Notes: a model not told the origin generated them from the letters alone. Shown: positions 3,803-44,150, numbered from the stretch's first letter. The stretch is DNA of 64,000 nucleotides from Clostridium sp. CAG:914 (GCA_000437895.1 FR902162.1:68289-132288), one strand, 5' to 3'. Numbers and translations are program-made.

Positions 3803-3908
3803 GATACTATTAGACAAACTATTATGGTTTGTCTTTTTAAATTGTAAATACTTAGTTGAGATATAATTAACCATGTGTTATAATCAAACAAGAAGGTTTG
3901 GTGATAAT

Positions 3909-4856: not shown

Positions 4857-4858
4857 TC

Positions 4859-10483: not shown

Positions 10484-10503
10484 GGGGCTTCCCCTTTTTT
10501 TTA
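10482..10503 (+). terminator. Rho-independent terminator after folD
   Basis: AAGGGG-CTT-CCCCTT hairpin followed by a T9 run. Confidence 0.6.
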
Positions 10504-10568
10504 ACATAAGTTTACTAATGAAGAAATTTGTGTTAATATAGTTAGCAACATTTAAAAAAGGAGAAAAT

Positions 10569-11837: not shown

Positions 11838-11947
11838 GAATGATAACAACGATGATAAAAGAAGATGGCCAAGAAGAATTTTTAAATGATAATTATACCT
11901 ATAAAAGGACACAATAGTAAAAATAAATATGCTATTAAGAAAAAAAA

Positions 11948-12183
11948 TTAGAAAATATTTGAATATTTAAATAAATTATCTGAAAGATATAGAGAAGTCA
12001 TAATGATGAGATATGGCTTTGAAGGAGAGCCAAAAACATTTCAAGAAATTGGTAAATCACTTGGAATTACTAGACAAAGAGCTGAACAAATAGAAAAATC
12101 AGCAAGAAGAGCAATATTATTAATGATAAGAAGAGCTGGTCATGAGGATTTTATATCAGAAGGTTATAGTTACATACGTTAAA
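11948..12183 (+). repeat. Second copy of the 151-bp rpoD 3' segment, carrying the intact rpoD C-terminal coding end
   Basis: 11948-12098 is identical to 11678-11828. It continues in frame to the stop at about 12181, encoding ...RQRAEQIEKSARRAILLMIRRAGHEDFISEGYSYIR. A TAG sits in frame just upstream of the copy. Confidence 0.7.
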
Positions 12184-12295
12184 AAATAATGCTACAATTA
12201 GTAGTGTTATTTTCTTTTAACTATTTGTAAAAATATAGTAAATGTATCTTTACAAAATTAAAAAAGTTATATTATAATTATATTAAGGTGAGAAT

Positions 12296-13333
12296 ATGAA
12301 AAAACAATCTATACTTAATCTTAATATCTCATCAATAAATGATATAACTAAGATAGAAGAAAGTTGTAAATATATTGATTTAGATCTTACTAATTATAGT
12401 AGTGAAGTTATAAATTATTTCTTAAAAAACGGAAGTAATTATATGTATAGTGAAATAATAAATAACAAGAAAGGTTATGTATATGTTGACTATGAAATAT
12501 TTGCAAGAGGAGAACACATCATAGATTTAATATATCAAAATATGCCTCAAAATCTTAATGAACTAGCCAAAGCAAAATATTTATATATTTCCCTAGGTAG
12601 TCTAGTAGGATATGATATAAATACAGATATAGAAAAAAATGATGATTATTCATATTCCTTTCAAAGTACTACTGATAGTATCTGGGGAACTCTTTCAAAA
12701 GGAAAATGTAGCAATATAAGTATTGTAAAAATATACTATTATTTATGTAAAATTTCTAACATTAATTGTGAAATAATAAAATCAAAAAATGATTACTATA
12801 ATAAAATAATTATTAATAATACAACATTGATTATAGATTTATATAAAGATATTCCATATATACAAAGTAAGTTTAAAACAAAATATTTTTCTAACTATAA
12901 TGATGATATAGAATTAGATAAAACAATCGGATATATTAAAAATAATTATTGTGAAGTATTAATTGATGAATCATTAAAAGAACTTAATTTCAATAAAGAA
13001 AATATTTTGCCTAGCATATTGAATAAAACACAAAATATTATGGATATAGCTAACATCGAACCATCTTGCTTATCTATTATATATAATTTAATATTTACTA
13101 AATATTGTCCAGACTATAATATAAGTATTAATAATTTATACTTAAATGATATTTATAATAAACATGATCATTTTATATTAATAAGTCATGATAAACTACA
13201 TTATAGTTATAATTATAAAACAAAAAATTTCATACAAATGGATTATAACAATATAATTAATAATATAGAAAAAGGTAGAATAGGAATATACCTTAATGAA
13301 AAAATTCCTAATATAAATGAAAGAAGTGATTAA
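12296..13333 (+). CDS. Hypothetical cytoplasmic protein (N/Y/I-rich), possible transglutaminase-like fold
   Basis: Consensus-like promoter (TTTACA...TATAAT) and RBS AAGGTGAG upstream. Cys...His...Asp spacing weakly recalls the transglutaminase-like core. Confidence 0.35.
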   Translation: MKKQSILNLNISSINDITKIEESCKYIDLDLTNYSSEVINYFLKNGSNYMYSEIINNKKGYVYVDYEIFARGEHIIDLIYQNMPQNLNELAKAKYLYISLGSLVGYDINTDIEKNDDYSYSFQSTTDSIWGTLSKGKCSNISIVKIYYYLCKISNINCEIIKSKNDYYNKIIINNTTLIIDLYKDIPYIQSKFKTKYFSNYNDDIELDKTIGYIKNNYCEVLIDESLKELNFNKENILPSILNKTQNIMDIANIEPSCLSIIYNLIFTKYCPDYNISINNLYLNDIYNKHDHFILISHDKLHYSYNYKTKNFIQMDYNNIINNIEKGRIGIYLNEKIPNINERSD

Positions 13334-14773: not shown

Positions 14774-15835
14774 ATGCCAAAAAAAATTATAATATTTTTA
14801 ATTATTTTAATACTTTTCATATCTAAAGTATATGCAGAAGATACTTATCGAGAAATAAAAGATTATGAAATAAGATATCGTTTTTATAAAGAAATAAATA
14901 ATAATGATAGTATTTATTATCCCAAAGGAGAAAAATTAAATGGATATATAGAAGAAGAAAATAACTTAAAATATGGAGAGTATAGTGAATATATGAATGA
15001 GTGTGAAGTTTCTGAAGAATTATATGATATAGAGTATAAAGATATTTATGTATATAAAGAGTTAAAGGAATTTCAATCATTAGTCCTTAATAAATTTGAT
15101 GGCGTTATTAAGAGTGTTATGATTATGTTTTATAATAAAGAAAATCTAAAAAAATATAACAACATAACAGACTTTTCATATCCAGCAGGAACACATCAGT
15201 ATTTTGAAGAAAAACTTAATGTTAACGATGTATTTCTACATGCTTATTGTGGTGGAATAAATACTTTTACAATAACATTATATAGTGATAAAAATTATCA
15301 ATACCCCATAGCATACAAAGAAGTAAATAATAGTATGGGACATATAACTTTTTTTGATACTCCATGGCAATTAGTAGATAAAGAATTTATAACTAAAAAA
15401 TATGATAGTAAACAAGAGGAAGGTTTATTTAGAGAATATGTTAGTAAAGAAAAAATGTGCCGTTATAGAAGAATATACACTTATAGGTATAGTAGTAAAA
15501 GAGAATATTATGATAATGATTATCATGTTAATGTAGATGGATATATTAAAGATACAAATGATTTTAAAATATATTCTAAAATAGATAACAAAGAAATAGC
15601 CAAAGAAAAAATAATAGTTAAGTTTTCAGACAATATAAAAAAAGAAGAAATATTACCAGATAATAACAATTCAAATACCATAGAAGATAAAATTAAAGAA
15701 AACGATAAATTAAAAGAACAAGAAAATAATATAACAGAAAATAATAACAAAAAAATATATTATATATTAATAATTGTAACAACATTAATTATATTTATAA
15801 TATATAAATTAATAAAAAAATGTCGAGTGAAATAA
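14774..15835 (+). CDS. Secreted Tyr/Glu-rich protein with signal peptide and C-terminal TM anchor
   Basis: N-terminal signal peptide (IIIFLIILILFISKVYA) and C-terminal TM plus a KKCRVK tail. No LPXTG motif. Confidence 0.4.
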   Translation: MPKKIIIFLIILILFISKVYAEDTYREIKDYEIRYRFYKEINNNDSIYYPKGEKLNGYIEEENNLKYGEYSEYMNECEVSEELYDIEYKDIYVYKELKEFQSLVLNKFDGVIKSVMIMFYNKENLKKYNNITDFSYPAGTHQYFEEKLNVNDVFLHAYCGGINTFTITLYSDKNYQYPIAYKEVNNSMGHITFFDTPWQLVDKEFITKKYDSKQEEGLFREYVSKEKMCRYRRIYTYRYSSKREYYDNDYHVNVDGYIKDTNDFKIYSKIDNKEIAKEKIIVKFSDNIKKEEILPDNNNSNTIEDKIKENDKLKEQENNITENNNKKIYYILIIVTTLIIFIIYKLIKKCRVK

Positions 15836-15906
15836 ATGCAAGGTTTTGTCGAAAATATATATATTTTAATTAATATATGATAGATTATAGAAAAGAGGAT
15901 GATATT

Positions 15907-16227
15907 ATGTTAAAAATAAATTATGAATTTAGAAAAGGAATATTTTTTGTAAGATTAATTGGAGATTTAGATAAAAATAATTATTATAAACAAGAAAACT
16001 TTTTAGAAGAATTAATAAGCTATAATGGCTTTAAACAAGTAGTTATTAATACAGATTTACTTAGAAATGTTGATATATATGGCATCAATTACTTAATCAA
16101 TTTTAACAAGATATTAAGAAGTAAAAATACTAATTTGGTATTATGTGATAAAACAAACATTTGGAGAACTCTTTTTGGTAATCAAATTCAACATATTAAT
16201 AATGAATTGGAGGTATTTAATGGATAA
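15907..16227 (+). CDS. STAS-domain protein (SpoIIAA/anti-sigma-antagonist-like), non-phosphorylatable variant
   Basis: Aligns with SpoIIAA (LxG(D/E)LD, VxNxxDL..(D)..G). The conserved phospho-Ser position carries Leu (DLLRNVDIYG). Its stop overlaps the sigma gene start (ATGGATAA). Confidence 0.55.
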   Translation: MLKINYEFRKGIFFVRLIGDLDKNNYYKQENFLEELISYNGFKQVVINTDLLRNVDIYGINYLINFNKILRSKNTNLVLCDKTNIWRTLFGNQIQHINNELEVFNG

Positions 16228-16894
16228 TCTACAAACCATTGATTCTTATAATAAAATTATTTTAGATAATGAATGGTTAATATATAAAATAATTAATAAA
16301 TACACATCACATTTAGAACTAGAAGATTTATATCAAGTAGCTTCCATAGGATTAATAAAAGCATATAAAAGTTTTAAAGATGATTATAATACCAAATTTT
16401 CTTCTTATGCATATAAATATGTTCTAGGAGAAGTAATAAAATATGTTAATCAATATCGTAGTATTAAAGTAAATAAAGAAATGGGAAATTTATATGGAAA
16501 AATTCTAAAGGTAAGAGATTTATTATGTCAAAAATATATGCGAGAACCAAGTAATTATGAATTATCAGTATTTATGGGAATTGATGAAATAACATTAACC
16601 GAAATAATGAAAGCTAACATGGAAATAGATAGTTTAGACAAAATAATTAGTATTGATGATAAAGAAATGTACTTATACGATATAATAGGGTATGATGCCA
16701 TTAAACTAGACCAGATGGATTTATATAATGAAATTAGTAAACTATCTGAAGAGGAACAAAAAATGATTAAGGCTAAATACTACTATGGAATGTCACAGCA
16801 AGATATAGGGAACCTCTTTGGAATGCATCAAGTAGAAGTGTCTAGAAAACTTACAAAGACTATTGGAAAACTAAGAGATAAAATAGCTTCATAG
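16220..16894 (+). CDS. SigF/SigG/SigB-type (group 3) sigma-70 family sigma factor
   Basis: Region 2 DLYQVASIGLIKAYKSFK...FSSYAYKYVLGEV. Region 4 HQVEVSRKLTKTIGKLR is typical of SigF/G/B. RBS GGAGG lies 7 nt upstream. Confidence 0.75.
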   Translation: MDNLQTIDSYNKIILDNEWLIYKIINKYTSHLELEDLYQVASIGLIKAYKSFKDDYNTKFSSYAYKYVLGEVIKYVNQYRSIKVNKEMGNLYGKILKVRDLLCQKYMREPSNYELSVFMGIDEITLTEIMKANMEIDSLDKIISIDDKEMYLYDIIGYDAIKLDQMDLYNEISKLSEEEQKMIKAKYYYGMSQQDIGNLFGMHQVEVSRKLTKTIGKLRDKIAS

Positions 16895-17375: not shown

Positions 17376-17460
17376 CTTTATATAATATTGCTATATTTAA
17401 TCATATTATTTATGATAAATTATTAGATTATGTCTAGGAAAACTATAATTGGGGGAATTT

Positions 17461-18609
17461 ATGCATAATTTAATTAAGGTTAAAGTAGAAGGTAAAAATA
17501 TAAATAATTATATATTATGGCTCATAAAAAACAAAATTAATATTACTAACGTATCACTAGTATCACATAATGAAATGACCTTTTTAATAGAATATAAATA
17601 CTATAACTATTTAAAAAAATACTCTAAGACATATACGGTAAGTATATTGGAGGTACACGGTAAAGTAAAATTTATTATGTTTTTGAAACAAAACTTCATC
17701 ACATTAATATCTATCATTATATCTTTAACAATTTTATATATATTATCAAACGTAATATTTTCAGTTGATATAGTTTATAATAATAAAGAAATAGTAAATT
17801 TACTTAATAAAGAATTAAATAATTATAATATAAAAAAGTATCAGTTAAAAAAATCTTATGACAATCTTGAAATAATAAAAAAACAAATTTTGGAAAATAA
17901 TAAAGACACATTGGAATGGCTAGAAATATTAGAAAGTGGTACAAAATATATAGTTAAAGTAGTTGAGAGAAAACAAGAAACAAAAGATAATAGTTATAAA
18001 TATCAATCAATTACTGCTAAAAAAAATGCCATAATATATGATATAAAAGCATATAATGGAGAAAAATTAAAAGAAAAAAACGATTATGTAAAAAAAGATA
18101 CCATAATTATCAGTGGCATATTAAATAAAGCAAATGGTGAAATAATATATAAAAAAGCCTTAGGACAAATCCTTGGTGAAGTTTGGTATGAAACACAAGT
18201 TGAATTTCCATATTTTTATAAAGAAGAACAATTAACAGGTAGAAAAAGAGAAGTATATACCATAAAATTTATTAATAAGTCATTTCCATTATTCACATTT
18301 AAGAATTATCATAATTTTAAAAAAGATGAAATTATATTGGTGGATAATGATGTTGTTCCCATAAAATTTATTAAAGAAAAGCAATACGAAGTAAATATAA
18401 TTGAAAAAATTTATACTGAAGAAGAAGTTATAAAAGAAGCAATAACATATGCCAAAGAAAAGTTACAAGAAAGCAATCACAATATTTTAAAAATAAAAGA
18501 TTATTCAATAATGAAAAAAGAAAATATAGGAAATAAAGTAAAATTAAAAATATTTTTCTCTGTTATTGAAGATATTACCAAAATAGAAGAAATTAAAGTA
18601 GAATATTAA
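17461..18609 (+). CDS. yqfD: Stage IV sporulation protein YqfD-like
   Basis: N-terminal MHNLIKVKVEG...NIT YqfD-type domain, a single TM, and a long C-terminal domain. Follows yqfC as in Bacillus and Clostridium. Confidence 0.65.
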   Translation: MHNLIKVKVEGKNINNYILWLIKNKINITNVSLVSHNEMTFLIEYKYYNYLKKYSKTYTVSILEVHGKVKFIMFLKQNFITLISIIISLTILYILSNVIFSVDIVYNNKEIVNLLNKELNNYNIKKYQLKKSYDNLEIIKKQILENNKDTLEWLEILESGTKYIVKVVERKQETKDNSYKYQSITAKKNAIIYDIKAYNGEKLKEKNDYVKKDTIIISGILNKANGEIIYKKALGQILGEVWYETQVEFPYFYKEEQLTGRKREVYTIKFINKSFPLFTFKNYHNFKKDEIILVDNDVVPIKFIKEKQYEVNIIEKIYTEEEVIKEAITYAKEKLQESNHNILKIKDYSIMKKENIGNKVKLKIFFSVIEDITKIEEIKVEY

Positions 18610-27734: not shown

Positions 27735-28187
27735 ATGAAAAAATTAAACAGAAAAGGTTTTACATTAGTTGAGTTACTAGCAGTTATCATAATTCTAGCT
27801 GTAGTAGTAGGTATTACTATACCAACAATTTTAACTACAACAGCTAATGCCAAGAAAAAAGCATTTGAAACAGCAGCAGCAACAGCAGCAGATTGGTTTG
27901 ACAGACAATATCAGTCATATTTAATTGGTAATCCAGATTTATCACAATATGATGCAGCTTTTGAAACACTTTTCATTGATACTACCAATAAAACATTAAA
28001 GCAAACATCGGTAAAAATAGATGCTACATCTTTAATTCAAAATGCTGGATTATCAACAAAAAATGTTTTAAAAATGGAAGTAACATTCAATAGTGCTGGA
28101 AGATCATGTGTTGAACTAACACCACAACCAGATGGTGATTATGCTAACATTACTGGTATGCCCACAGCTGAAGGTGGAAATTGTTAA
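27735..28187 (+). CDS. Type IV (major) pilin-like protein with C-terminal disulfide loop
   Basis: Class III prepilin leader MKKLNRKG|FTLVELLAVIIILAVV with Gly-1/Phe+1/Glu+5. C-terminal Cys...Cys D-region-like loop (SCVELTPQPDGDYANITGMPTAEGGNC). Takes the internal ATG as start. Confidence 0.7.
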   Translation: MKKLNRKGFTLVELLAVIIILAVVVGITIPTILTTTANAKKKAFETAAATAADWFDRQYQSYLIGNPDLSQYDAAFETLFIDTTNKTLKQTSVKIDATSLIQNAGLSTKNVLKMEVTFNSAGRSCVELTPQPDGDYANITGMPTAEGGNC

Positions 28188-28188
28188 C

Positions 28189-28214
28189 TAGAAGCAAAAA
28201 TGCTTCTTTTTTCT
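28189..28214 (+). terminator. Rho-independent terminator after the pilin gene
   Basis: AGAAGCA-aaaa-TGCTTCT hairpin followed by a T-run. Confidence 0.6.
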
Positions 28215-28260
28215 TTGTGAGTTTTATGATATACTTATCTTATAAGAAAGAGGTAAGAAA

Positions 28261-29166
28261 ATGAATGAATTAATTATAGGAAGTCATGTATCATTTAATA
28301 ATAAAGATCAATTATTAGGGGCTGTTAAAGAAGCAGTATCTTATGGAAGCAATACATTTATGTTTTATACGGGAGCGCCTCAAAATACTAGACGAGGAGA
28401 AATAAATGATTTTGTGACTTTAGAAGCATATAAATTAATGAAAGAAAATAATATTGAATTAGATAAAGTAATAGTACATGCTCCATATATTGTTAATTTA
28501 GCAAATCCAGATAATATGGAGTTCTCAATTGATTTTTTAACTAATGAAGTAGAAAGATGTAATTTACTAGGTATGAAATATTTGGTTCTACATCCCGGTT
28601 CTAGCGTTAATGTATCAAGAGAAGAAGGAATTGCTAATATTATTAAAGGACTAAATGCTATATTGACAAATAACAATAATATTTGTATATGTTTAGAAAC
28701 TATGGCAGGTAAGGGTAACGAATTAGGAAGAAACTTTTTAGAATTAAAAGAAATTATAGATGGAGTAAATTTTAAAGATTCAATTGGAGTATGTATGGAT
28801 ACATGTCATTTATTTGATAGTGGTATTGATATAACAGATTTTGACAAAGTATTAGATGACTTTGATAAACAAATAGGACTAAATTATTTAAAATGTATTC
28901 ATATAAATGATAGTAAGAATATATTCTCTAGTCATAAAGATAGACATGAGAATATAGGGTATGGTAACATTGGTTTTGATATATTAATTAAAATTATATA
29001 TAATGAAAGAATTAAAAATATACCAAAAATATTAGAAACTCCTTATGTAGGAAAAACTGATGATGACAAAGAAAGAATATATCCACCATATAAATATGAA
29101 ATAGAGATGATTAGAAATAAAAAATTTGATACTAGTCTTTTAGAAAAAATTAGAAATAATGAATAA
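28261..29166 (+). CDS. nfo: Endonuclease IV (AP endonuclease, Nfo)
   Basis: HAPYIVNLANP, HPGS, ETMAGKGNELG, CMDTCHLF and HINDSK motifs of the Nfo TIM barrel. Confidence 0.9.
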   Translation: MNELIIGSHVSFNNKDQLLGAVKEAVSYGSNTFMFYTGAPQNTRRGEINDFVTLEAYKLMKENNIELDKVIVHAPYIVNLANPDNMEFSIDFLTNEVERCNLLGMKYLVLHPGSSVNVSREEGIANIIKGLNAILTNNNNICICLETMAGKGNELGRNFLELKEIIDGVNFKDSIGVCMDTCHLFDSGIDITDFDKVLDDFDKQIGLNYLKCIHINDSKNIFSSHKDRHENIGYGNIGFDILIKIIYNERIKNIPKILETPYVGKTDDDKERIYPPYKYEIEMIRNKKFDTSLLEKIRNNE

Positions 29167-29302
29167 AGTATGTTATTTAAAAAATAATATGCTTTTTTCT
29201 ATCTATCTATGTAATTTAATAAAAAAATAATATTTCACTTAAATGTAGTTGATATTTTGCCAAATATTTTGTATAATGTTAGAAGAATAGGAGTGTTTTA
29301 AC

Positions 29303-29959
29303 ATGGCAGAAAAACCGGAAATGACAGTTGAATATGACAATAAATTTGGCGTTAAACATTATAAAGTTAAAGTAATTAAGAAAAAAGAAAATCTTTTTAA
29401 ATACATTGTAAGTGTATTATCTTATGCTGTTTTTATATGGCTTCTTCTTATTGGAGGAACACTGCTTTTATATGTAGCAGATATTAAGATAAGAGCCATG
29501 AAAGGAGATAATTCTCCACCGGTATTTAATGCTTATGTTGTTATGTCTGGTAGTATGTTACCACAGATTAAAATAAAAGATATTGTTGTTACTAAAAGAG
29601 TTCCTGAAGAAAGACTTAAAGTTGAAGATGTTATAACATTTATTAGTCCAGACGAAAGACTTGGAGGAATAACTATTACTCATAGAATAAAAGAAAAATT
29701 TTATGATGATAGTATTAAAGGCTTCTATTATAGAACAAAAGGTGATAATAATAATATTGCTGATCCAGCTTTAGTTCCTTATGATAATATATTAGGTAAA
29801 GTAATACTAAAAATACCTAAATTAGGATATTTACAAGACATACTTGCAAGTAAAGGAACAGTTATAATTGTAATAATTATTCCATGTCTAGTAATATTTT
29901 CTTATGATATAATGAAGGGCTTAAAGAGTCTAGGAAAAAAGACTAAACTTATAAAATAG
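29303..29959 (+). CDS. sipW: SipW-type (archaeal/ER-like) signal peptidase I
   Basis: Catalytic VVMSGSMLP (SGSMEP-like), DVITF, ITHRI and KTKGDNN motifs. A C-terminal TM anchor follows the catalytic domain, which is characteristic of SipW. Confidence 0.8.
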   Translation: MAEKPEMTVEYDNKFGVKHYKVKVIKKKENLFKYIVSVLSYAVFIWLLLIGGTLLLYVADIKIRAMKGDNSPPVFNAYVVMSGSMLPQIKIKDIVVTKRVPEERLKVEDVITFISPDERLGGITITHRIKEKFYDDSIKGFYYRTKGDNNNIADPALVPYDNILGKVILKIPKLGYLQDILASKGTVIIVIIIPCLVIFSYDIMKGLKSLGKKTKLIK

Positions 29960-29969
29960 GAGTTATTTC

Positions 29970-31619
29970 ATGAGTAAGAAAAAATATGATGTAGTAGAAC
30001 TTAACAAAAAAGAAAATAAAATACTACTTGAAAAAAAACAAAATATGTTCATTTTGTTCTTAAATAAAATGGGACCATTATTTTCTATATTATTACTATT
30101 AATAGGCATTGGATTAGTGTCTCTAAGTTTAATGTTAGTAACAAAAAAATTACTAGTGTCTGAAGAACCTAATATCAAAGATGCTAAAATAACAGTTAAG
30201 TTTTTAGATGACATATCAGATGTTACAATGAAGAATATTACCCCTATACCAGAAAATACTGCTGTGAATAGCTTTAAAAATAGTAATGTATTTGCATCTA
30301 ATGGGGAAATTCTTATATATAAAAAAGTAGAAGCAAGTAGTTACATAATATATTATTTTAGTGATAAAAGTGCTTTAAAATTAAATAAAGAAGATAATAC
30401 AGTTATTAGAATTGCTCCCATAAATAATGAATATGGCATAAGTGATAATGGTACAATCAATATGAGCACTAAAATGAGTAATATAAACATAGATAATATA
30501 AAAGATACTAACTATGGAAAAATAACATATTTTACTGATGGAAGTGCTTTAATTACTAATAGTGATATAGATATGTTTGTAAGAAATAGTCTAGATATAA
30601 AAGAAAATTATATTTCTAATAATAAAGTATCTTATTTAAAAAATACTAATATTGAAAATGGTAAAGAAATAAATAACTTTTATGATGGAAGTATGTTAAT
30701 TAATTATAATGGTACAAATTATATTGTAAGAAATAATGATGATATAAAAGTAAATGGAAAAAATATAACATTTCCAAATAACAATCAAGCAACATTAACA
30801 GAAAGTATATCATTAGAACATAATATAAGAATAGATTATTATAGTGATGGATCTGCTATTGTTAAAGACGGCAGTAAAATAATTAGTGTAAGAAAAAGTA
30901 ACAGTATTATTATAAAAAACAATACTTTAATAGAAATAATTGATAATGTTGAAGTAAGTATTGCATCAACTAAAGATAATACCACATACTATACAAATGG
31001 AAGTGCTATGACAAAATATAATGATTTATTAGTGTTTGTTTCTGATAATTCACAAATTAAATATAAAGATAATAATGTTAATATTGAAGATAATTATAAA
31101 GAATTAACTCGTGAAAGTCATTTAAATAATGAAGATATATTTATATTTGATGATATAACTATTGTTACTAAAGATAATAAAACAATTATAACTAATACTA
31201 GCAATGTTATCATGGATAGTGATGGATATGTAAAAGAAATTATTAATAATACAATTGAAGATGATAAATTTTCCTTTACTATATCTAATGATACTAATGA
31301 AGAAATTAATTATAGAGTAGTTATAGAGTCATCAGAAAAAACAACTCTAGATACGAAGTTTATGAGATATATTTTAAGTTATAATAATATATATACTAAT
31401 CCTAGCAAATTAGAAGATAATATTTGGAAATATGATAAATTAAGTGAAAAATTAAACTTAAATGGTATTAATTATATTCTATTAGAAAAAAGTCTAGAGG
31501 CATATCAAATGGATGAAATATCTTTGATGTTATGGACTGATTATGAAACTATTCCTAATTCTATGATGAATAAAGCATTTTTAGGAACAATAAAAGTATA
31601 TTCTTGGATTAACGAATAA
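29970..31619 (+). CDS. N-terminally membrane-anchored surface protein with repeated YxxDGSA motifs
   Basis: Single TM near residues 35-55. Four copies of the Y(F/Y)(S/T)DGSA(L/I/M) motif at about 50-60 aa spacing. No cleavable SipW-type signal. Confidence 0.4.
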   Translation: MSKKKYDVVELNKKENKILLEKKQNMFILFLNKMGPLFSILLLLIGIGLVSLSLMLVTKKLLVSEEPNIKDAKITVKFLDDISDVTMKNITPIPENTAVNSFKNSNVFASNGEILIYKKVEASSYIIYYFSDKSALKLNKEDNTVIRIAPINNEYGISDNGTINMSTKMSNINIDNIKDTNYGKITYFTDGSALITNSDIDMFVRNSLDIKENYISNNKVSYLKNTNIENGKEINNFYDGSMLINYNGTNYIVRNNDDIKVNGKNITFPNNNQATLTESISLEHNIRIDYYSDGSAIVKDGSKIISVRKSNSIIIKNNTLIEIIDNVEVSIASTKDNTTYYTNGSAMTKYNDLLVFVSDNSQIKYKDNNVNIEDNYKELTRESHLNNEDIFIFDDITIVTKDNKTIITNTSNVIMDSDGYVKEIINNTIEDDKFSFTISNDTNEEINYRVVIESSEKTTLDTKFMRYILSYNNIYTNPSKLEDNIWKYDKLSEKLNLNGINYILLEKSLEAYQMDEISLMLWTDYETIPNSMMNKAFLGTIKVYSWINE

Positions 31620-31635
31620 CTAGAAAGGTGGTACT

Positions 31636-33873
31636 ATGGAAGAAATATTAAATAAAAAAAATTATATTTTATTAATAGCAATTATTTTTGTGGCCGTTTC
31701 TTTATCAGGTACCACATATTCATTGTTTATTAAAGTAGATGATACTAATCAATTTAATTATAAAACAGGTATATTAGATCTAGAATTCCAAGAAGAAAAC
31801 ATCATTGAATTACCAGAAGCTTTCCCTGTTAGTGACACTAAAGGAATGTCTTATGAACCGTACACTTTATCAGTTAAAAATATAGGAACAATTGCATATA
31901 TCTTTGATTTAAAAGTATCTGATAATGATGATAATAAACTAATTAATAGTAAATATATTAAAGTACAAATAGATGATAATTTACCAATAACACTACAAAA
32001 TAGTAATAATACATTAAAGAAAAATATAATTTTATATCCAGGGGAAACAATAAAATTTAAAATAAAAATGTGGTTAGATATAAATACTCCAAATACTGAA
32101 CTTGGAAAACAATTTAATGCTACATTAATTACCAGTGGCAGTTCATTTTATAAAACTTTAGATGAAAGTGGAGCTAACCACCCAAGTCTAGAAGATAATA
32201 TGCTTCCTGTATATTATGATGAATATAACAAGGTATGGAAAAAAGCTGATGAAAGTAATTTAGATGCTAGTTATAAATGGTATGATTATGATGATAAAAT
32301 GTGGGCTAATTCTATAGTTTTAAAAGATGGAGAAAAGGTTATTCATGATATATCAAGTAAAAATAATAATATAAAAAATATAAGTAATATAAATGTAATT
32401 GATAAAAATTTAATATTAGAAAATAATAAATTAGATATAAATTTAAGTAAGTATATTAATAAGAACATAAGTATTGTAGAAAGATTGGCTTTAAATGACT
32501 TAAAGCATAATGATATAGATATTATTTCAAGCGATGGATTTAATTTAAGATATAATACTAAAAATAATAATTTTATTATAGATATAAATGGATTTAATAT
32601 AACATCTAATAAATATATTATTGAGGAAAATAAATTTTATATTATAAGTCTTACTATGAGTGATAAAGACATAAATCTATATATAAATGGTAGTAGTGTT
32701 TTAAATTATAGTATGGCAATCAATACAAATTATAATATATTAACTATTGGTGGTATAGGAAATGTTTTAGTTAGTGATTTATATGTATATAATGATATAT
32801 TGACAAGTAAAGAAGTAAATAATAATTATAGGGATAATCTAATATTAATAACTGATAATTTAGTAAGTGGATATAATAATTTTTATCCAATGACAACGGA
32901 TAGCTATTATAAAAGTAGTCCTTTAGGAACTACTATTAAAGATAGTGATATAAATGAATTTTATGTATGGATACCAAGATTTAAGTATCGTTTATGGAAT
33001 GTTACTGGAGAACCTAATATAAGTTCTTATGATGCTTACACTAAAGGAATAGATATATCTTTTGAAAAAAATAAAGAAAGTGGAGGAAGTATATACTGTA
33101 AAGATAATATTTGTTATAGTGATGAGGGGAGAATAATACCTTTAACACAAAATGATAATGACAAATACTATACACCAAGTAGTTTTACTAACAATGAGGA
33201 ATTATTAGGATTTTGGGTTGGTAAGTACGAAGTATCTAATGGTTGCAAAGATAATTGCCTAACCAATAGCAGTAACTTTACTATACTACCTAATCAAGAA
33301 TCATGGAGAAATAATAATTTATCTAATTATTATGAAGCTATAAAAGGTAAAGCAAACAGTTATCATATAATAAAAAATAGTGAATGGGGAACTATAAGTT
33401 ATCTATCACATTCAAAGTATGGAATATGTTCTAACATGAAATGTACAGAGATAACTTCAAACAATACATATATTTCAGGAAAAGACGAAAAAGACAGTAC
33501 TACAGGAAACATCTATGGAGTATATGATATGGCAGGAAGTGCTTCAGAATTTGTTATGGCAAATTATTCCACAAATAATTCTTTAGCACTAAATAATAGT
33601 AATTTCAAATATAACACTACTATCCCTAGTACTGATTATGATTTGTATAGTGGTACTAACTTTATCTTAGGAGACGCTACAAAAGAAATACTTTTGTCAT
33701 CGTCAAATACAGGTGCTTGGTACAACAATTACTCTGTATTTATCGACAAAGTAAATAACTGGTTTATACGTGGTGGAATGGCTGGAAATGAAGTTGGTAA
33801 TGGAATATTCTACTATAATGCTACTAGTGATAATCAAAGCGAATATATATCCACAAGAGTAGTTATTAGATAA
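31636..33873 (+). CDS. TasA/camelysin-like N-terminal domain with SipW-cognate signal peptide fused to a C-terminal FGE/SUMF1-like domain
   Basis: N-terminus LLIAIIFVAVSLSGTTYSLF...KTGILDLEF parallels TasA ...GGGTWAAF...SGTLDLSA. C-terminal NIYGVYDMAGSASEFV...FIRGGMAGNE resembles FGE-sulfatase-family motifs (YGLYDMSGNVWEW...RGGSW). Confidence 0.55.
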   Translation: MEEILNKKNYILLIAIIFVAVSLSGTTYSLFIKVDDTNQFNYKTGILDLEFQEENIIELPEAFPVSDTKGMSYEPYTLSVKNIGTIAYIFDLKVSDNDDNKLINSKYIKVQIDDNLPITLQNSNNTLKKNIILYPGETIKFKIKMWLDINTPNTELGKQFNATLITSGSSFYKTLDESGANHPSLEDNMLPVYYDEYNKVWKKADESNLDASYKWYDYDDKMWANSIVLKDGEKVIHDISSKNNNIKNISNINVIDKNLILENNKLDINLSKYINKNISIVERLALNDLKHNDIDIISSDGFNLRYNTKNNNFIIDINGFNITSNKYIIEENKFYIISLTMSDKDINLYINGSSVLNYSMAINTNYNILTIGGIGNVLVSDLYVYNDILTSKEVNNNYRDNLILITDNLVSGYNNFYPMTTDSYYKSSPLGTTIKDSDINEFYVWIPRFKYRLWNVTGEPNISSYDAYTKGIDISFEKNKESGGSIYCKDNICYSDEGRIIPLTQNDNDKYYTPSSFTNNEELLGFWVGKYEVSNGCKDNCLTNSSNFTILPNQESWRNNNLSNYYEAIKGKANSYHIIKNSEWGTISYLSHSKYGICSNMKCTEITSNNTYISGKDEKDSTTGNIYGVYDMAGSASEFVMANYSTNNSLALNNSNFKYNTTIPSTDYDLYSGTNFILGDATKEILLSSSNTGAWYNNYSVFIDKVNNWFIRGGMAGNEVGNGIFYYNATSDNQSEYISTRVVIR

Positions 33874-33908
33874 TAATAAAACTGATTAGAATTTTTTACT
33901 AATCAGTT

Positions 33909-34772
33909 TTATTTATATTCAGCTTTAATCATTTTAGCATGAATAACAATTCTTTTTGTACTATCATTATTACAAGTAGATAAAGTTAAAATTTTATCTT
34001 CCGTTGAAATATCTTCATTAAAATCATATATGCTTCTTCCTTTAATCGTATCAACAAACTTTTGATGTTCTTCCTCTGTTTCAAAATAAGTCTTTAAGTA
34101 ATATACTTCTGTTTTAATCATATATATTGAAAATATTTTCCATACAGTATTAGAGGTAGGAGTGGATACTTTGATATAATGATTATCGACATTAGTATAC
34201 CAACTATCTTTTAAACACCAAGTTAATGTACTAAACATCGTATCTGTTCTTGTATTATGAGCATAAATAATAGAATTATTACCAAAATATTTAAAATCAT
34301 CACGATAGTCAGCATAAACCCAACCACTACGATTACTTTTTTTATTAAAATCATGTTTTAAATAGTATGCATTATCACTCGTTTGTACAACTGGATAATT
34401 AACATTAGTATTATTAACCTTAATCCACCCCACAGTATCGCTGTTTTTGGATAATAATTCCCCAAAATCAACATTCATAAAACTAATATTCTTATATTTG
34501 TCTTCACTATCTGGATAATATTCAACATAATCAATAGTTTCTTGCTTTTCATCTTTTAAAGCTTCTGTAGTTTTTAAAATATCGTTTGTAAGAAAATCCA
34601 ACTTCAATTGCTGAACATACCACTTAGAACAAATAAATACACAAATAAGATAAGTACCTAATGTCAAAGATAAAATAATTATAGGTATAACAGGTTTACC
34701 ATTGTACTTAATTTCATTTGCTTTCTTTGGATTAAATAATGTTATAATACCCTGTATAAAATATTTTGGCAT
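33909..34772 (-). CDS. srtB: Class B sortase
   Basis: Aligns along its length with S. aureus SrtB: DTVGWIKVNNTNVNYPVVQ, IIYAHN (His), TMFSTL, KILTLSTCNN...TKRIVIHAKMIK (TLxTC Cys plus conserved Arg). N-terminal TM anchor. Confidence 0.8.
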   Translation of the reverse strand: MPKYFIQGIITLFNPKKANEIKYNGKPVIPIIILSLTLGTYLICVFICSKWYVQQLKLDFLTNDILKTTEALKDEKQETIDYVEYYPDSEDKYKNISFMNVDFGELLSKNSDTVGWIKVNNTNVNYPVVQTSDNAYYLKHDFNKKSNRSGWVYADYRDDFKYFGNNSIIYAHNTRTDTMFSTLTWCLKDSWYTNVDNHYIKVSTPTSNTVWKIFSIYMIKTEVYYLKTYFETEEEHQKFVDTIKGRSIYDFNEDISTEDKILTLSTCNNDSTKRIVIHAKMIKAEYK

Positions 34773-38099: not shown

Positions 38100-38582
38100 A
38101 TGAAAAATAAAGGTTTTACATTAATAGAATTACTTGCTACCCTAATAATTTTAGCTCTAATCACCTCTGTAGTAACAATAGTTACATTGAATACTATGAA
38201 AAAAGCTAAAGAAAAAGAAAGAGATATTCTTGTTGCAAACATTATAGATGGAGCTACCGCTATGGCATTAGAATGTGTAAACACTACACCAAAAGAATTA
38301 CCTATATGTGGGAATATTAATGAAAACAACAAAATACCTTTAGGAGATTTAGTAAAATATGGATATATACAAGGTGATGAAAATGGAAAGATTTATAATC
38401 CCGCCGCCTCAAAAGAAGAATACAAAGATGTCACAGATTGTGAGTTTTACATAGAAACAATCAAAGATGTAGCAGAATTTCATATCTGTGAGATGAACGA
38501 GAGTGGTAAACCAATATGTCCAAATGGACCACAAATAGAAAAGTGTTATGAATTAAAATTAGCTGTAGATGGAGGAAAATAA
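38100..38582 (+). CDS. Type IV pilin/pseudopilin-like, Cys-rich
   Basis: Prepilin leader MKNKG|FTLIELLATLIILALI. Mature region has about 7 Cys. Confidence 0.6.
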   Translation: MKNKGFTLIELLATLIILALITSVVTIVTLNTMKKAKEKERDILVANIIDGATAMALECVNTTPKELPICGNINENNKIPLGDLVKYGYIQGDENGKIYNPAASKEEYKDVTDCEFYIETIKDVAEFHICEMNESGKPICPNGPQIEKCYELKLAVDGGK

Positions 38583-41761: not shown

Positions 41762-42848
41762 AATGAGTGAATTAAAAATTATTGTACCAGAGAATTTTAA
41801 AGAAATGGGTTCAAAAATTAATACCCATATCCAAGCTCTAAGAAATACCCAAGATAATTATCTAGTAGATATTGATTTAGTAAGATTTAATAACGGAGAA
41901 GGTAAAGTATTGATAAATGAAACCATTAGGGAAAAAGATGTCTATATTATATCTGATGTTACTAACTATGATATAACTTATGAAGCATTTGGAAAAACAC
42001 ATAATATGATGCCAGATGAACATTACCAAGATATAAAAAGAATTCTAAGTGCAATATGTGGACATGCTAAAAAAATAACTCTAATTATGCCATATATGTA
42101 TCAATCAAGGCAAGATAAAAAATCAGGCCGTGAATCACTAGACTGTGCTGTAGCCTTACAAGAATTAGTAAAAAGTGGTGTAAATGAAGTAATTACGTTT
42201 GATATTCATAATAGTGGAATATGTAATGCTATACCAGATATTGCCTTTGAAAATATATATGCTACCGATGAAATGTTATTTAATTTAATAACAAAAGAGA
42301 ATATAAGTTCTAAAAACTTAGTTGTCGTATCACCTGATGAAGGAGCAATGAAAAGAGCAAGTCTACTATCTGATATATTAGGAGGAATTCCTGTTGCTTC
42401 GTTTTACAAACAAAGAGATTATACTAAATTAGAGAATGGTCATCACCCAATAATAGAACATCGCTTTTTAGGCCCAGATTCACTAGAAGGAAAAGATGTT
42501 ATCGTAGCAGATGATATGATTGCATCAGGAGGATCATTATTAGATACTTCAGAAAGACTAAAGAAATTAAAAGCTAATAGAATATTTTTAATGGCAACAT
42601 TTGCCTTGTTTACAAGTGGTCCTGATAAATTTGATTTATTTTACAAGAAAAAATATTTTGATAGAGTATATGCTACAAATTTATCTTATGTACCAGAAAA
42701 TATTAGAAAAAAAGAGTGGTTTATTTTGATAGATTGTTCATATAAATTAAGTTATGTTATAAATGAACTTAATCAAGGACATTCTATATCTAGTATACTA
42801 GACGGAGAAGCCAACATTATAGAAAAATTAAAGGATGTGAATATATGA
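41751..42848 (+). CDS. prs: Ribose-phosphate pyrophosphokinase family (PRPP synthetase-like, with insertion)
   Basis: PYMYQSRQDKK (compare PYFGYARQDRR), VVSPDEGAMKRA, PRPP-binding DDMIASGGSL. Confidence 0.65.
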   Translation: MRSKMSELKIIVPENFKEMGSKINTHIQALRNTQDNYLVDIDLVRFNNGEGKVLINETIREKDVYIISDVTNYDITYEAFGKTHNMMPDEHYQDIKRILSAICGHAKKITLIMPYMYQSRQDKKSGRESLDCAVALQELVKSGVNEVITFDIHNSGICNAIPDIAFENIYATDEMLFNLITKENISSKNLVVVSPDEGAMKRASLLSDILGGIPVASFYKQRDYTKLENGHHPIIEHRFLGPDSLEGKDVIVADDMIASGGSLLDTSERLKKLKANRIFLMATFALFTSGPDKFDLFYKKKYFDRVYATNLSYVPENIRKKEWFILIDCSYKLSYVINELNQGHSISSILDGEANIIEKLKDVNI

Positions 42849-43210
42849 AATTAAATAACAAAGGCTTTACACTAATAGAATTATTAGCAGTAATAGTTTT
42901 ACTAATAGCTATATCAGCCATTGCTATACCAAGTATTACTGCCTCAATAGAAAGAAGCAAAGCCAAACAAGATGATGCCAAAAAAAGAATTATTGAATCT
43001 TCAGCAGAATTATACTATTCAAATAATAAAAATAAATTAACTAATTTTAAAAATGGTACTTGTTATATAAGTGTAGATGACTTAGATTTAACTGACAAAG
43101 AAAAAACAGATCCATATAACAATACATATAATGGTGGAGTGGTTTATGAAAATAAAAAATATGTATATAAAGATGCAGATGAAATAAAAATAAGTAAATG
43201 TAACATCTAG
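42845..43210 (+). CDS. Type IV pilin/pseudopilin-like (ComGC/PilA-like)
   Basis: Prepilin leader MKLNNKG|FTLIELLAVIVLLIAI. Start overlaps the prs stop. Confidence 0.6.
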   Translation: MKLNNKGFTLIELLAVIVLLIAISAIAIPSITASIERSKAKQDDAKKRIIESSAELYYSNNKNKLTNFKNGTCYISVDDLDLTDKEKTDPYNNTYNGGVVYENKKYVYKDADEIKISKCNI

Positions 43211-43218
43211 GAGGATAA

Positions 43219-43674
43219 ATGAATAATAAAGGGTTTATGATAACAGAAGTTGTAGTCGTATCAGTAATAGTATTATCTGTATTAGTAACTATGTATGTAA
43301 GTTATGGAAAACTATTTACGGGATTTAAAGAAAAAATAAATTATTATAATCCTGATAGTATATACAAGTTAGCTAATGTAAGAGATGCAATGATAAAAGA
43401 TGGAACATTAAATACTCTAATAAAAGAATATACAAGTACAATAAAAATAGATAGTTATTGTAAAGGACTATGTAATGAATTAAAAAGTACAAACAATATA
43501 TATATATCTAATTATGAAGACTTAGAAAAAATTAATAATACTAATCAAACTTTTAAAGACTATATAGCCTTCTTAGAAAATAATATTGAAAATAAAAATA
43601 ATTATTATCTTATAATAGAAACAGAAGTATATAATAACTATTATTATTCGTATTTAGAGGTAGAAAAACTATGA
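43219..43674 (+). CDS. Minor pilin-like protein
   Basis: MNNKGFMITEVVVVSVIVL N-terminus, a prepilin-like leader with Glu+5. Confidence 0.5.
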   Translation: MNNKGFMITEVVVVSVIVLSVLVTMYVSYGKLFTGFKEKINYYNPDSIYKLANVRDAMIKDGTLNTLIKEYTSTIKIDSYCKGLCNELKSTNNIYISNYEDLEKINNTNQTFKDYIAFLENNIENKNNYYLIIETEVYNNYYYSYLEVEKL

Positions 43675-44150
43675 AAAAATTAAACAATAAAGGTTATCTA
43701 ACTGTTGAAGTAGTATTAGCAAGTGTAATAGCTTTTGGTCTTGCATATTTCTTATTGAATCTAACTATTAAAGTAAAAGATAAGAATGACGATATGTTAG
43801 TTAAAACAATACTAATTAATGATAAGGCTATAATAGAAAATAATATTATGAAAGATAATGATAAATATACTAGTGTAGAATTAGAAGAATGTGCGCAAAA
43901 AAAATGTACAATCAGTTTTCTATCAGATACAAATAATAAACTAATATATATAAATGTAGAAGGTAAATATCCTAAAATCGAGTGTAGAACAGATGGAAAT
44001 TTAACATTTTCTAAAGAGTTTAGTAAATATGCTAATGTAGGAAATATAAATATTAATGAAACTAGTGATTTATTATCAATAACAATACCTATCACTAATG
44101 AGTTTATAAAAGATTATAATTTTGATATAAATATAGAATTAATAAAATAG
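43671..44150 (+). CDS. Minor pilin-like protein
   Basis: MKKLNNKGYLTVEVVLASVIAF prepilin-like leader. Overlaps the preceding gene. Confidence 0.5.
   Translation: MKKLNNKGYLTVEVVLASVIAFGLAYFLLNLTIKVKDKNDDMLVKTILINDKAIIENNIMKDNDKYTSVELEECAQKKCTISFLSDTNNKLIYINVEGKYPKIECRTDGNLTFSKEFSKYANVGNININETSDLLSITIPITNEFIKDYNFDINIELIK

Follow-up and report, generated by a model that had tools for sequence, protein, structure and literature searches.

A SipW-type signal peptidase operon of a gut Clostridium encodes a signal-anchored repeat protein and a TasA-like protein with lectin-like domains: a candidate surface adhesin

Results

Organization of the locus

The 64,000-nucleotide stretch of DNA that was analyzed (the window) comes from Clostridium sp. 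CAG:914, a common uncultured human-gut bacterium, and carries a conserved three-gene operon. This trio consists of sipW (29303-29959), a gene for a 549-aa protein (29970-31619) and a gene for a 745-aa protein (31636-33873), tightly packed with intergenic gaps of 11 and 17 nt. An earlier note on this DNA had described six genes in the region, and all six are present with the coordinates and orientations that it gave. The features of the locus are as follows:

27735-28187, plus strand: type IV pilin-like gene; context only, judged to lie outside the system; not beside the trio in related loci L006, L007, L008 and L011
28261-29166, plus strand: nfo (deoxyribonuclease IV), a housekeeping gene (NF002196, 417 bits against a cut-off of 333); context only
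29249-29277, plus strand: promoter-like site (TTGATA, 17-nt spacer, TATAAT; 11 of 12 matches), 26 nt upstream of sipW
29303-29959, plus strand: sipW-like gene, archaeal/ER-type signal peptidase I of 218 aa (TIGR02228)
29970-31619, plus strand: gene for the signal-anchored 549-aa stalk protein, 11 nt downstream of the sipW stop codon
31636-33873, plus strand: gene for the 745-aa protein
33909-34772, minus strand: class B sortase gene; context only, a link to the trio being possible but unsupported
34874-34846: promoter-like site near the sortase gene

The promoter-like site upstream of sipW is a consensus match only and is weak evidence, because this AT-rich region shows no excess of such sites (62 against an expected 73).

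The flanking genes had been read as encoding a type IV pilin and a class B sortase, and both calls hold. The pilin has the prepilin N-terminal cleavage and methylation motif, passing Pfam N_methyl PF07963 (30.6 against 21.2) and TIGR02532 (27.4 against 16.3), with two Cys within its last 25 residues. The window has three pilin-like genes in all, dispersed between housekeeping genes, with the other two at 38100 and 42845; no type IV pilus assembly genes were found among the scanned window ORFs. The sortase passes the class B model TIGR03064 (159.1 against 153.75); its gene is convergent to the 745-aa gene, and the two stops are 35 nt apart.

The signal peptidase

The sipW product passes TIGR02228 with 92.2 bits against a cut-off of 51.85, as expected from its previous assignment to the SipW type. 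It falls below the cut-off of the Bacillus SipW equivalog NF046067 (83.8 against 190), and a Pfam search of the protein returned no match. Judged by its sequence, the peptidase is the same enzyme type as Bacillus SipW and not an ortholog by NCBI's criterion. Hydropathy places two membrane spans at aa 30-63 and 177-207, and the sequence contains an SGSM motif with S84, a THR motif with H127 and, at its N-terminus, a conserved cytoplasmic extension of about 30 aa. S84, H127, D148 and D154 are invariant in the peptidase alignment (A3), and the trio peptidases of L006 and L007 are 67-73% identical to that of the window. We take S84 and H127 to be the catalytic Ser/His pair (not Ser/Lys) by analogy with published work on SipW. 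The identical peptidase in NCBI, CDE96135.1, is annotated 'signal peptidase I' and is present on at least 1000 contigs.

The 549-aa protein

The 549-aa protein has no sequence match in Pfam, NCBIfam or PDB, and belongs to a set of about 500 homologues, all of about 550 aa. In the loci examined, the gene for the homologue always has sipW on one side and the 745-aa homologue's gene on the other. Three parts of the protein can be distinguished:

29970-30149, plus strand: cytoplasmic tail that is nearly invariant (KKxEVVELNKKE, aa 1-33), followed by one membrane span (about aa 34-60, by hydropathy)
30288-31085, plus strand: five repeats of about 50 residues, with Y-[YF]-[ST]-[DN]-G-S-[AM] centers at aa 129, 187, 238, 290 and 340
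31266-31613, plus strand: beta-sandwich domain at the C-terminus (aa 433-548), a homologue of aa 75-171 in the 745-aa protein

The single N-terminal span and the five repeats agree with the description of an N-anchored repeat protein that had been given. In an alignment of 25 family sequences (43-56% identical overall), A5, V8, E10, L11, N12, K13 and I18 are invariant, and because the cytoplasmic tail is so strongly conserved, we infer that the N-terminus is kept as an anchor and is not cleaved. It had also been called an unrelated protein in the position of TapA, and here the comparison gave a different result. The hhalign comparison of family profiles A4 and A5 shows its C-terminal domain to be homologous to the N-terminal domain of the 745-aa protein (95% probability, E 3.5e-8, 101 columns), covering only aa 75-171 of the latter.

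The 745-aa protein: signal peptide and TasA-like domain

The 745-aa protein is composed of a TasA-like signal peptide, a beta-sandwich, a linker, a LamG domain and an FGE-type C-lectin fold. Its parts are as follows:

31636-31722, plus strand: SipW-type signal peptide (aa 1-29), with a predicted cut TYS(29)|LF between S29 and L30 and Phe at P2'
31723-32163, plus strand: domain with a TasA-like beta-sandwich (aa 30-176), its N-terminal arm at aa 28-37 being of low confidence
32164-32340, plus strand: linker or mini-domain (aa 177-235), with conserved SGANxP, MIPVYYD, WKKAD and WYDYxxxxWAN
32341-32889, plus strand: inserted LamG/ConA-like (pentraxin-like) lectin domain (aa about 236-418), by PF13385 Laminin_G_3 HMM match and fold
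32890-33873, plus strand: C-terminal FGE-type C-type-lectin fold (aa 419-745 and the stop codon), by fold comparison

At the predicted cut, the family shows the consensus G-x-S-Y-A and then a hydrophobic residue. The hhalign comparison with B. subtilis TasA places S29, L30 and F31 of the 745-aa protein on A27, A28 and F29 of TasA, whose mature form in PDB 8aur begins at A28. According to one study, TasA needs SipW because of Phe at P2' (PMC10269814).

The earlier description of a TasA-like N-terminus is supported by fold and profile comparison and not by the family models that had been proposed for it. Neither TIGR04088 (searched with the N-terminus) nor Peptidase_M73, PF12389 (searched with the isolated N-terminal domain), gave a match even at E 10. 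Peptidase_M73 was matched by 2 of 40 family members (best E 8.6e-6), and a small protein adjoining a family homologue in another locus (L001) passes TIGR04088 (22.6 against 19) and is matched by the profile of the N-terminal domain (E 3e-5). In comparisons with PDB structures, the top match of this domain was the TasA fibre, and the archaeal pilus subunit AbpA was among the top ten. The alignments extend over 131 residues for TasA and 126 for AbpA, as against 85-113 for most generic sandwiches and 119-124 for a few integrin chains. The domain resembles TasA modestly, with scores almost as high for PapD-like, MSP and other Ig-like folds. The N-terminal arm is poorly ordered in structure models of the monomer.

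The 745-aa protein: lectin-like heads

The earlier domain list for this protein had overlooked the LamG/ConA-like domain at aa about 236-418. In relatives that lack this insert, the linker is contiguous with the C-lectin domain; alignments A1 and A2 show no variation at its residues W215, Y218, W223 and A224.

The FGE label given to the C-terminus stands as a fold, in that fold and profile comparison find an FGE-type C-lectin, whereas the threshold of FGE-sulfatase PF03781 (gathering score 23.3) was missed both by the whole protein (19.5 bits) and by the domain alone (22.5). We read it as a non-enzymatic, lectin-type fold, which is closest to the variable proteins of diversity-generating retroelements (DGRs). 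A blastn search of 33400-33900 against the window for a DGR template repeat gave only short AT-rich chance matches, and variation among 119 strains takes the form of a few linked haplotypes rather than adenine-directed hypervariation.

The head module represents a large unannotated family of at least 3195 clusters. In other Firmicutes the same module is fused to type IV pilin N-termini, which marks it as a cargo that filaments display; pilins of modular build that carry lectin modules have been described (PMC8179133, PMC9934059).

Conservation of the trio

The trio is kept as a block in five related species-level loci (L006, L007, L008, L010 and L011) with entirely different flanks, these being SASP/ArsP_2/ThiI upstream and VanZ/YbeY or GH31/BacA downstream. 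Across related loci and clustered relatives, the two substrate proteins are 44-56% identical. The SipW gene lies two genes upstream of the 745-aa homologue in the window and in all five loci; thus the coupling of SipW to a protein with a TasA-like signal, as previously proposed, is kept in every close relative examined, and the notion that these genes are never co-localised does not apply. Six distant relatives have an N-domain that can be recognised as TasA-like and flanks of at least 4 kb on either side; none of the six has a SipW gene nearby, so that tight linkage to SipW is a feature of this clade and not of the whole family. Many distant family members carry simple membrane anchors.

Discussion

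A proposed assembly

The reading that we prefer, with about as much confidence as reserve, is that the trio builds a cell-surface adhesin of lectin type through donor-strand-type assembly, and that the pilin, nfo and sortase are not required parts. SipW would cut the 745-aa precursor after Ser29 and, as in TasA, free an N-terminal arm (L30 to about N38). The arm would then serve as the donor strand, either for the homologous domain that the membrane-anchored 549-aa stalk carries at its tip or for the next 745-aa subunit, the latter giving a short fibre rooted on the stalk. Because its N-terminus is cytoplasmic, the 549-aa protein could only accept a strand and not donate one as TapA does. The outcome would be a stalk or fibre showing two lectin-like heads, which may bind glycans or other gut ligands. 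Assembly by donor-strand exchange is known for both TasA and AbpA (PMC9674648, PMC9245690).

A simpler account, which we consider doubtful, holds that the 745-aa protein is a monomeric lectin or adhesin, secreted or loosely cell-associated, with SipW merely its dedicated peptidase and the sandwich a passive Ig-like spacer. There would be no donor-strand assembly, and the 549-aa protein would act separately, perhaps as a surface protein in its own right. The near-equal scores of other Ig-like folds, the failure to reach any TasA-family HMM threshold, and the distant family members, most without an adjacent SipW and many with simple anchors, are all consistent with this account. However, the longest structural alignments are those to the TasA fibre and AbpA, and the signal peptide and first strands are in register with TasA. 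In addition, the 549-aa protein has the same domain and is without exception inherited together with the 745-aa protein, which makes a lectin that does not interact with it hard to credit.

It is unlikely that the product is specifically a SipW-dependent, TasA (CotN)-like appendage or adhesin of the spore surface, made during sporulation. The window holds sporulation genes (YqfD, YlbD/YlbE, a sigma factor and STAS), a SASP gene lies directly upstream of the trio in L006, L007 and L008, and PDB 5of1 names TasA 'Spore coat-associated protein N'; no SASP gene, however, adjoins the trio in the window. Since a signal-anchored stalk fits the cell membrane and the forespore membrane equally, a spore role is a variant of the adhesin that we favor and not an exclusive alternative.

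The earlier note had joined the products of the locus, from the pilin and SipW through the repeat protein and the TasA-like/FGE fusion to the class B sortase, into one composite pathway. In such a pathway a type IV pilus piston might, for example, export the large folded protein through the wall, with the sortase anchoring the structure. There is some precedent for this in Clostridium perfringens, where srtB is adjacent to the sipW-bsaA-bsaB-bsaC operon and secretion of BsaC depends on type IV pilus components, PilA3 and the machinery included (Kivimaki et al. preprint, PMC11580942). Pilin-like genes do occur in the window, and sortase genes turn up repeatedly in the vicinity of distant family members, in one case within the operon (L030 and L056), yet this enrichment is weak (684 kb of flanks gave 5 matches, of which about 3 are independent). 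None of pilin, nfo and sortase adjoins the trio in any of the five related loci. Directly 3' of the pilin gene is a terminator-like hairpin of its own (28190-28207), nfo lies in between, and the sortase is convergent. A C-terminal sorting signal (motif, then hydrophobic stretch and basic tail) was found in none of the window ORFs of at least 80 aa, and neither the 549-aa nor the 745-aa protein has a membrane span at its C-terminal end by hydropathy. Moreover, a C. perfringens srtB mutant still oligomerises BsaA (PMC11580942). A pathway that includes the pilin and sortase is therefore very unlikely, and the three genes are probably incidental neighbors.

Finally, weak FGE-sulfatase HMM matches and nearly invariant polar residues of the FGE-like family (K530, E532, H577, N581 and E583) might suggest a catalytic role for the C-terminal domain, be it that of a formylglycine-generating or similar oxidase or of some other enzyme with substrates at the surface, but this is most improbable, no Cys that could form the catalytic pair of formylglycine-generating enzyme being found among the invariant or near-invariant columns of 40 to 45 family members.

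Returning to the donor-strand adhesin, we tentatively raise the possibility that it is a Gram-positive surface organelle of an undescribed type. A SipW-released, TasA-like donor-strand module with lectin heads would dock onto, or polymerise from, a membrane-anchored stalk with an acceptor tip, and the same head would be an interchangeable cargo on TasA-like subunits and type IV pilins across thousands of gut Firmicutes lineages. If this is true, the organelle inverts the logic of TapA and TasA, and evolution has grafted one lectin head onto two unrelated filament systems.

Comparison with known systems

The cassette belongs with SipW/TasA-type systems as a variant form, the mechanism of assembly being one that we infer. 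Like B. subtilis tapA-sipW-tasA, it encodes a dedicated archaeal/ER-type signal peptidase with its substrates, a substrate signal peptide with a small P1 residue and Phe at P2', a beta-sandwich for which TasA is the top structural match, and a same-operon accessory protein related to the main subunit. In contrast, the operon starts with sipW and has no TapA homologue, and its proteins miss the Peptidase_M73, TIGR04088 and Bacillus SipW equivalog models. The accessory protein, at 549 aa and signal-anchored with a cytoplasmic N-terminus, differs from TapA in having no N-terminal strand to donate. At about 145 aa, the TasA-like domain is much smaller than TasA (234 aa), and some 570 residues of lectin-like domains are attached to it. 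This bulky C-terminal extension might sterically block TasA-like polymerisation, which counts against the assembly proposed here.

An operon sipW-bsaA-bsaB-bsaC of C. perfringens was reportedly described by Obana et al. in 2020. With this precedent published (PMC11580942), the combination in the window, which had been regarded as not a textbook arrangement, is less unprecedented than was thought. The two are alike by layout, sipW coming first with TasA-like proteins and a large multi-domain protein that has an interaction domain; a sortase gene (srtB in C. perfringens) adjoins both, and the proteins of both lack an LPXTG motif. They differ in that the binding domains of the window are LamG and C-lectin (not vWA), form a single fusion polypeptide with the TasA-like domain, and are not accompanied by a separate small BsaA-like subunit.

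AbpA, which forms the bundling pili of the archaeon Pyrobaculum calidifontis (PDB 7ueg), is by comparison a single-domain subunit with neither lectin heads nor an anchor protein. In the modular pilins PilB and PilC of Streptococcus sanguinis (PMC8179133, PMC9934059), the carrier is a prepilin with an N-terminal methylation motif that is processed by PilD, unlike the TasA-like carrier of SipW-processed type in the window. The DGR variable proteins TaqVP (5vf4) and TvpA (2y3c) use the FGE-type C-lectin fold for ligand binding; the window, with no template repeat and with linked haplotypes, has this fold in a chromosomal operon with SipW rather than in a retroelement. The two-domain tip adhesins of chaperone-usher systems, FimH and PapG, have the opposite domain order and use a Gram-negative usher, whereas the window has no periplasmic chaperone, and the likeness to them is probably analogous rather than homologous.

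Conservation and Organization of the sipW Gene Cluster

The window organism is a low-GC member of the Bacilli that is common in the human gut and uncultured, and the region studied, at 24% GC, is coded almost wholly on the + strand. The earlier note had proposed that a pilin, a SipW signal peptidase, a repeat protein, a TasA-like/FGE protein and a class B sortase form one composite locus interrupted by nfo, and all six of these genes were found:

27735-28187, + strand: type IV pilin-like gene; passes N_methyl and TIGR02532, with two C-terminal cysteines
28190-28207: terminator-like hairpin directly 3' of the pilin gene
28261-29166, + strand: nfo (NF002196, 417 bits)
29303-29959, + strand: signal peptidase of 218 aa (TIGR02228, 92.2 against a cut-off of 51.85)
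29970-31619, + strand: ORF of 549 aa, no family match
31636-33873, + strand: ORF of 745 aa; Laminin_G_3 and FGE-sulfatase matches, both sub-threshold
33909-34772, - strand: class B sortase, convergent (TIGR03064, 159.1 against a cut-off of 153.75)

The calls of a SipW-type peptidase, of a type IV pilin and of a class B sortase were borne out by the corresponding models. The peptidase failed the Bacillus SipW equivalog model and had no Pfam match; it has the N- and C-terminal membrane spans that are typical of SipW. The 549-aa protein contains one membrane span, which is N-terminal, and the 745-aa protein begins with a hydrophobic signal. An identical SipW is present on at least 1000 assembled contigs (NCBI CDE96135.1, labeled both 'signal peptidase I [Clostridium sp.]' and 'MAG: Bacilli bacterium'), and an identical 745-aa protein occurs, with gene order unchanged, on many ENA contigs of 100-170 kb.

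Five related loci were compared with the window, three from related species reached via 549-aa homologues at 43-56% identity (L006, L007 and L008) and two added by a metagenome scan (L010 and L011). The trio of sipW, the 549-aa gene and the 745-aa gene is present in all five, in the same order, as a peptidase of 217-223 aa followed by proteins of about 555 aa and of 720-760 aa, the last with a LamG domain; the linkage of SipW to a TasA-like protein that had been put forward is therefore a recurrent one. SipW of the window is 67-73% identical to that of the trio relatives, while the 549-aa and 745-aa proteins show approximately 44-56% identity across the five loci and clustered relatives. Where flanks were annotated (L006, L007 and L008), they show no relation to the window flanks, with SASP, ArsP_2 and ThiI upstream and VanZ/YbeY or GH31/BacA downstream. 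A direct search of the five loci for the rsmD, pilin, nfo, sortase, DUF402 and tsaE genes of the window found none of them. Since the trio is conserved within different flanks from which the neighbors in the window are absent, the conserved unit is sipW plus the 549-aa and 745-aa genes. Searched for paralogues of the three proteins, the rest of the window yielded none. In L011 the 549-aa homologue is split into two ORFs (8307-9044 and 9048-9974) by a frameshift or stop, or by an assembly error.

The intergenic gaps within the trio are 11 nt (sipW to the 549-aa gene) and 17 nt (549-aa to 745-aa gene). A site located 26 nt upstream of sipW matches the -35/-10 consensus well, as does a TG-extended site that precedes the sortase gene on the opposite strand. 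Consensus matches of this kind are weak evidence in DNA this AT-rich; they agree with a probable three-gene operon that leaves out the pilin, nfo and the sortase. The cytoplasmic N-terminal tails of the two membrane proteins in the trio are conserved to an unusual degree: NxFGVKHYxV...KxEN in SipW (aa 1-32, 29303-29400) and KKxEVVELNKKE in the 549-aa protein (aa 1-33, 29970-30068). These tails may contact each other or a cytoplasmic partner.

Family and Architecture of the 745-aa Protein

Homologues of the 745-aa protein from a direct search were all 96-100% identical to it, and a scan of GTDB genomes found just two distant relatives, with SipW adjacent in neither. An exhaustive search of 1.84 billion cluster representatives (clusters at 50% identity) revealed at least 3195 related clusters at E <= 1e-3, 1583 of them at E <= 1e-10, and this head family carries no annotation. 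In a typical member, of 560-690 aa, an N-terminal domain (query residues 1-230) is joined to a C-terminal one (420-745); the 745-aa protein and its closest relatives have an extra insert at residues 236-418. At the same insertion point, dockerin type I repeats occur in four family representatives (P0149, P0160, P0226 and P0256) and in the metagenome locus L002 (7989-10190); modules seem to be inserted preferentially here.

Searches of PDB chain sequences gave no match for the 745-aa protein, the 549-aa protein or the N-domain profile. An AlphaFold2 model of the 745-aa protein, built with 45 sequences, had a mean pLDDT of 86 and a pTM of 0.74; past the signal helix, its sole low-confidence stretch is residues 28-37. 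By Foldseek comparison with the PDB, the insert is a ConA/LamG-type lectin domain that matches BoNT Hc, trans-sialidase lectin domains and pentraxins. The best structural match of the C-terminal domain is the variable protein of a diversity-generating retroelement (DGR), and its closest structures are binding proteins. Because the C-type lectin fold of one such variable protein, TaqVP, is of the FGE subtype (PMC6328139), and because the weak HMM matches are to FGE-sulfatase, the C-terminal 330 residues are identified as an FGE-type C-lectin fold. The family has no conserved cysteine, and the domain is therefore not a formylglycine-generating enzyme; the FGE call thus stands as to fold, with a sub-threshold HMM match, and falls as to enzyme. 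The head has the motifs SGANxP, WYDY, VWIPRYKY, GKFE, STTGNxYGVYDMSGG and RGG.

The structural match prompted consideration of a DGR, which was rejected, as the window contains no template repeat and strain variation is haplotypic. In 119 strain variants of 96-100% identity, variation peaks at aa 686-745 (33691-33870), the counterpart of the variable region in DGR variable proteins; mean entropy is 0.16 in these last 60 residues versus 0.03-0.06 elsewhere, and the variation takes the form of two or three linked haplotypes.

A Probable TasA-like Domain Shared by the 745-aa and 549-aa Proteins

The N-terminus of the 745-aa protein had been described as TasA/camelysin-like with a SipW-cognate signal. 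Neither HMM that bears on this description matched: Peptidase_M73 gave no hit even with the isolated N-domain at E 10, nor did TIGR04088. Other criteria point to the relationship. The consensus N-terminus has a hydrophobic core, G-x-S-Y-A and then hydrophobic or aromatic residues, and 2 of 40 family members reached Peptidase_M73 (8.6e-6). An hhalign comparison of the N-domain profile with Bacillus subtilis TasA (E 1.8e-4, probability 48%, 70 columns) placed S29|L30-F31 on the known TasA site A27|A28-F29, aligned GILDL with GTLDL and matched an x-F-x-F-x-N-x-G strand; the TasA sequence used was identical to PDB 8aur over residues 28-261. We conclude that the N-domain carries a SipW-type signal peptide and is a small domain, probably a divergent relative of the TasA/AbpA fold; by threshold it falls outside the Pfam camelysin family.

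In the metagenome locus L001, two small proteins (3380-4360 and 4484-5197) are encoded directly downstream of a LamG-less 745-aa homologue. They have the classic SipW-dependent signal GATFAYF[TS]ASAT, and the N-domain profile matches both; one passes TIGR04088 and matches Peptidase_M73 weakly. The available 7.8 kb contains no SipW.

The 549-aa protein belongs to a family of about 500 detected sequences, all of approximately 550 aa. A cytoplasmic tail that hardly varies leads into a single membrane span; five repeats, each of some 50 residues (Y-Y-S-D-G-S-A), and a conserved C-terminal domain follow. That domain (residues 433-548) is homologous to residues 75-171 of the 745-aa protein (profile-profile probability 95%, E 3.5e-8), and thus the two proteins encoded 3' of SipW share one domain. 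The repeat protein, previously called unrelated, is in this respect a relative of the 745-aa protein. In the 745-aa protein the shared domain is found at the N-terminus, which is predicted to be processed; in the 549-aa protein it forms the distal end of a repeat stalk anchored in the membrane. The extreme conservation of the cytoplasmic tail argues that the N-terminus of the latter is probably kept as a signal anchor, and not removed.

Heads on Pilins and the Range of SipW Linkage

A SipW-type signal is present in most family members, among the best 150 representatives and 80 metagenome loci. In several, the same head is carried by a bona fide type IV pilin N-terminus that replaces the SipW-type TasA-like domain. 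Five representatives of this kind pass N_methyl (P0202, P0215, P0253, P0256 and P0176), and pilin-type N-termini also occur in five metagenome loci (L033, 593-2242; L046, 9431-11152; L055, 261-1976; L076, 8828-11257; L082, 510-2234). The head is thus common to two filament classes, which marks it as cargo displayed on filaments, and the modular pilins of Streptococcus sanguinis are a parallel (PMC8179133, PMC9934059). Two pilin-fused relatives checked for placement in a type IV pilus operon (L076 and L043) are surrounded by housekeeping genes, among them EF-G, EF-Tu, MurD, enolase and Rnf, and lend no support to a dedicated machinery context.

SipW was nearby in none of six distant relatives with a recognizable N-domain and at least 4 kb on both sides, and the only distant members with a SipW-like gene nearby were L021 (7787-8932) and L050 (3496-4644). 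Tight SipW linkage is clade-specific. The peptidases of L021 and L050, which are on unrelated contigs, have 382-383 aa, with the S26 domain C-terminal to an extension of about 250 aa.

Proposed Assembly and Its Implications

SipW-dependent TasA-like surface assembly is a kind of system already known, and we regard it as quite probable that the cassette is one. What is new is the fusion of a TasA-like module to lectin heads, the signal-anchored partner with a cognate domain, the head common to type IV pilins and the size of the unannotated head family. A literature search found no paper linking SipW with an FGE-type domain, and four sequences of the 745-aa and 549-aa families had no name in the sources searched.

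The observations are of a conserved operon, a peptidase of defined type, identified domains and one domain common to two proteins. An assembly can tentatively be proposed by analogy with TasA, TapA and AbpA (PMC9674648, PMC10151520, PMC9245690), which we judge to have an even chance, or slightly less, of being correct. SipW would remove residues 1-29 of the 745-aa protein, and the freed arm, from L30, would complement the beta-sandwich of a partner. The 549-aa protein would be acceptor and anchor only, because it has no free extracellular N-terminus; the 745-aa protein would be the donor, as a single head or a short polymer, with its LamG and C-lectin domains as ligand-binding heads.

The cassette is a concrete candidate adhesin that lends itself to experiment: its protease is defined, a cleavage site is predicted, an anchor is proposed and two domains are candidates for glycan binding. 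To our knowledge, nothing is known of how such gut Bacilli attach to mucus, food particles or other cells. TasA-like donor-strand domains may be carriers for lectin heads; taken with the pilin-borne head and the large family, such carriers would bring a second filament class under the 'modular pilin' concept. These three points would likewise open a way into a large set of surface proteins in gut metagenomes that have no annotation.

Sortase and Pilin Genes beside the Cassette

A single pathway comprising the pilin, the SipW trio and the class B sortase has a precedent in Clostridium perfringens, where a sipW-bsaA-bsaB-bsaC operon adjoins srtB, BsaC depends on PilA3 and the type IV pilus machinery for its secretion, and the Bsa proteins of strain 13 all lack LPXTG (PMC11580942). 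Sortase genes also recur near distant family members: within the operon in L030 (8656-9414, operon 7335-12577) and L056, upstream in L016 (6652-7401) and L012 (1-255), and 5 kb away in L081 (16513-17358). The sortase of L030 and L056 has 252 aa (Pfam Sortase, 32 bits) and lies within an operon of three head-module paralogues. About three of the cases are independent, over 684 kb of flanking DNA; no substrate was recognizable beside these sortases, and the proteins there have no C-terminal sorting signal. Against a joint pathway, none of the pilin, nfo and sortase genes adjoins the trio in the five related loci, and no sorting signal was found in any window ORF of at least 80 aa. A functional link may exist, but for the window cassette the comparative evidence is against it, and we consider the single pathway very improbable; the three-gene cassette is the preferred reading.

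The window has three pilin-like genes whose N-termini read GFTL[IV]ELLA (27735-28187, 38100-38582 and 42845-43210), each standing alone among housekeeping genes (rsmD/nfo, tsaD/ung and prs), and no pilus assembly genes were present among the window ORFs scanned. Small ORFs at 43219-43674 and 43671-44150 accompany the third pilin-like gene. Elsewhere in the window, two + strand ORFs of about 350 aa with no Pfam match at E 1e-3 (12296-13333 and 14774-15835) lie near sporulation-related genes, a STAS/sigma factor region (15877-16894) and YqfD (17449-18609).
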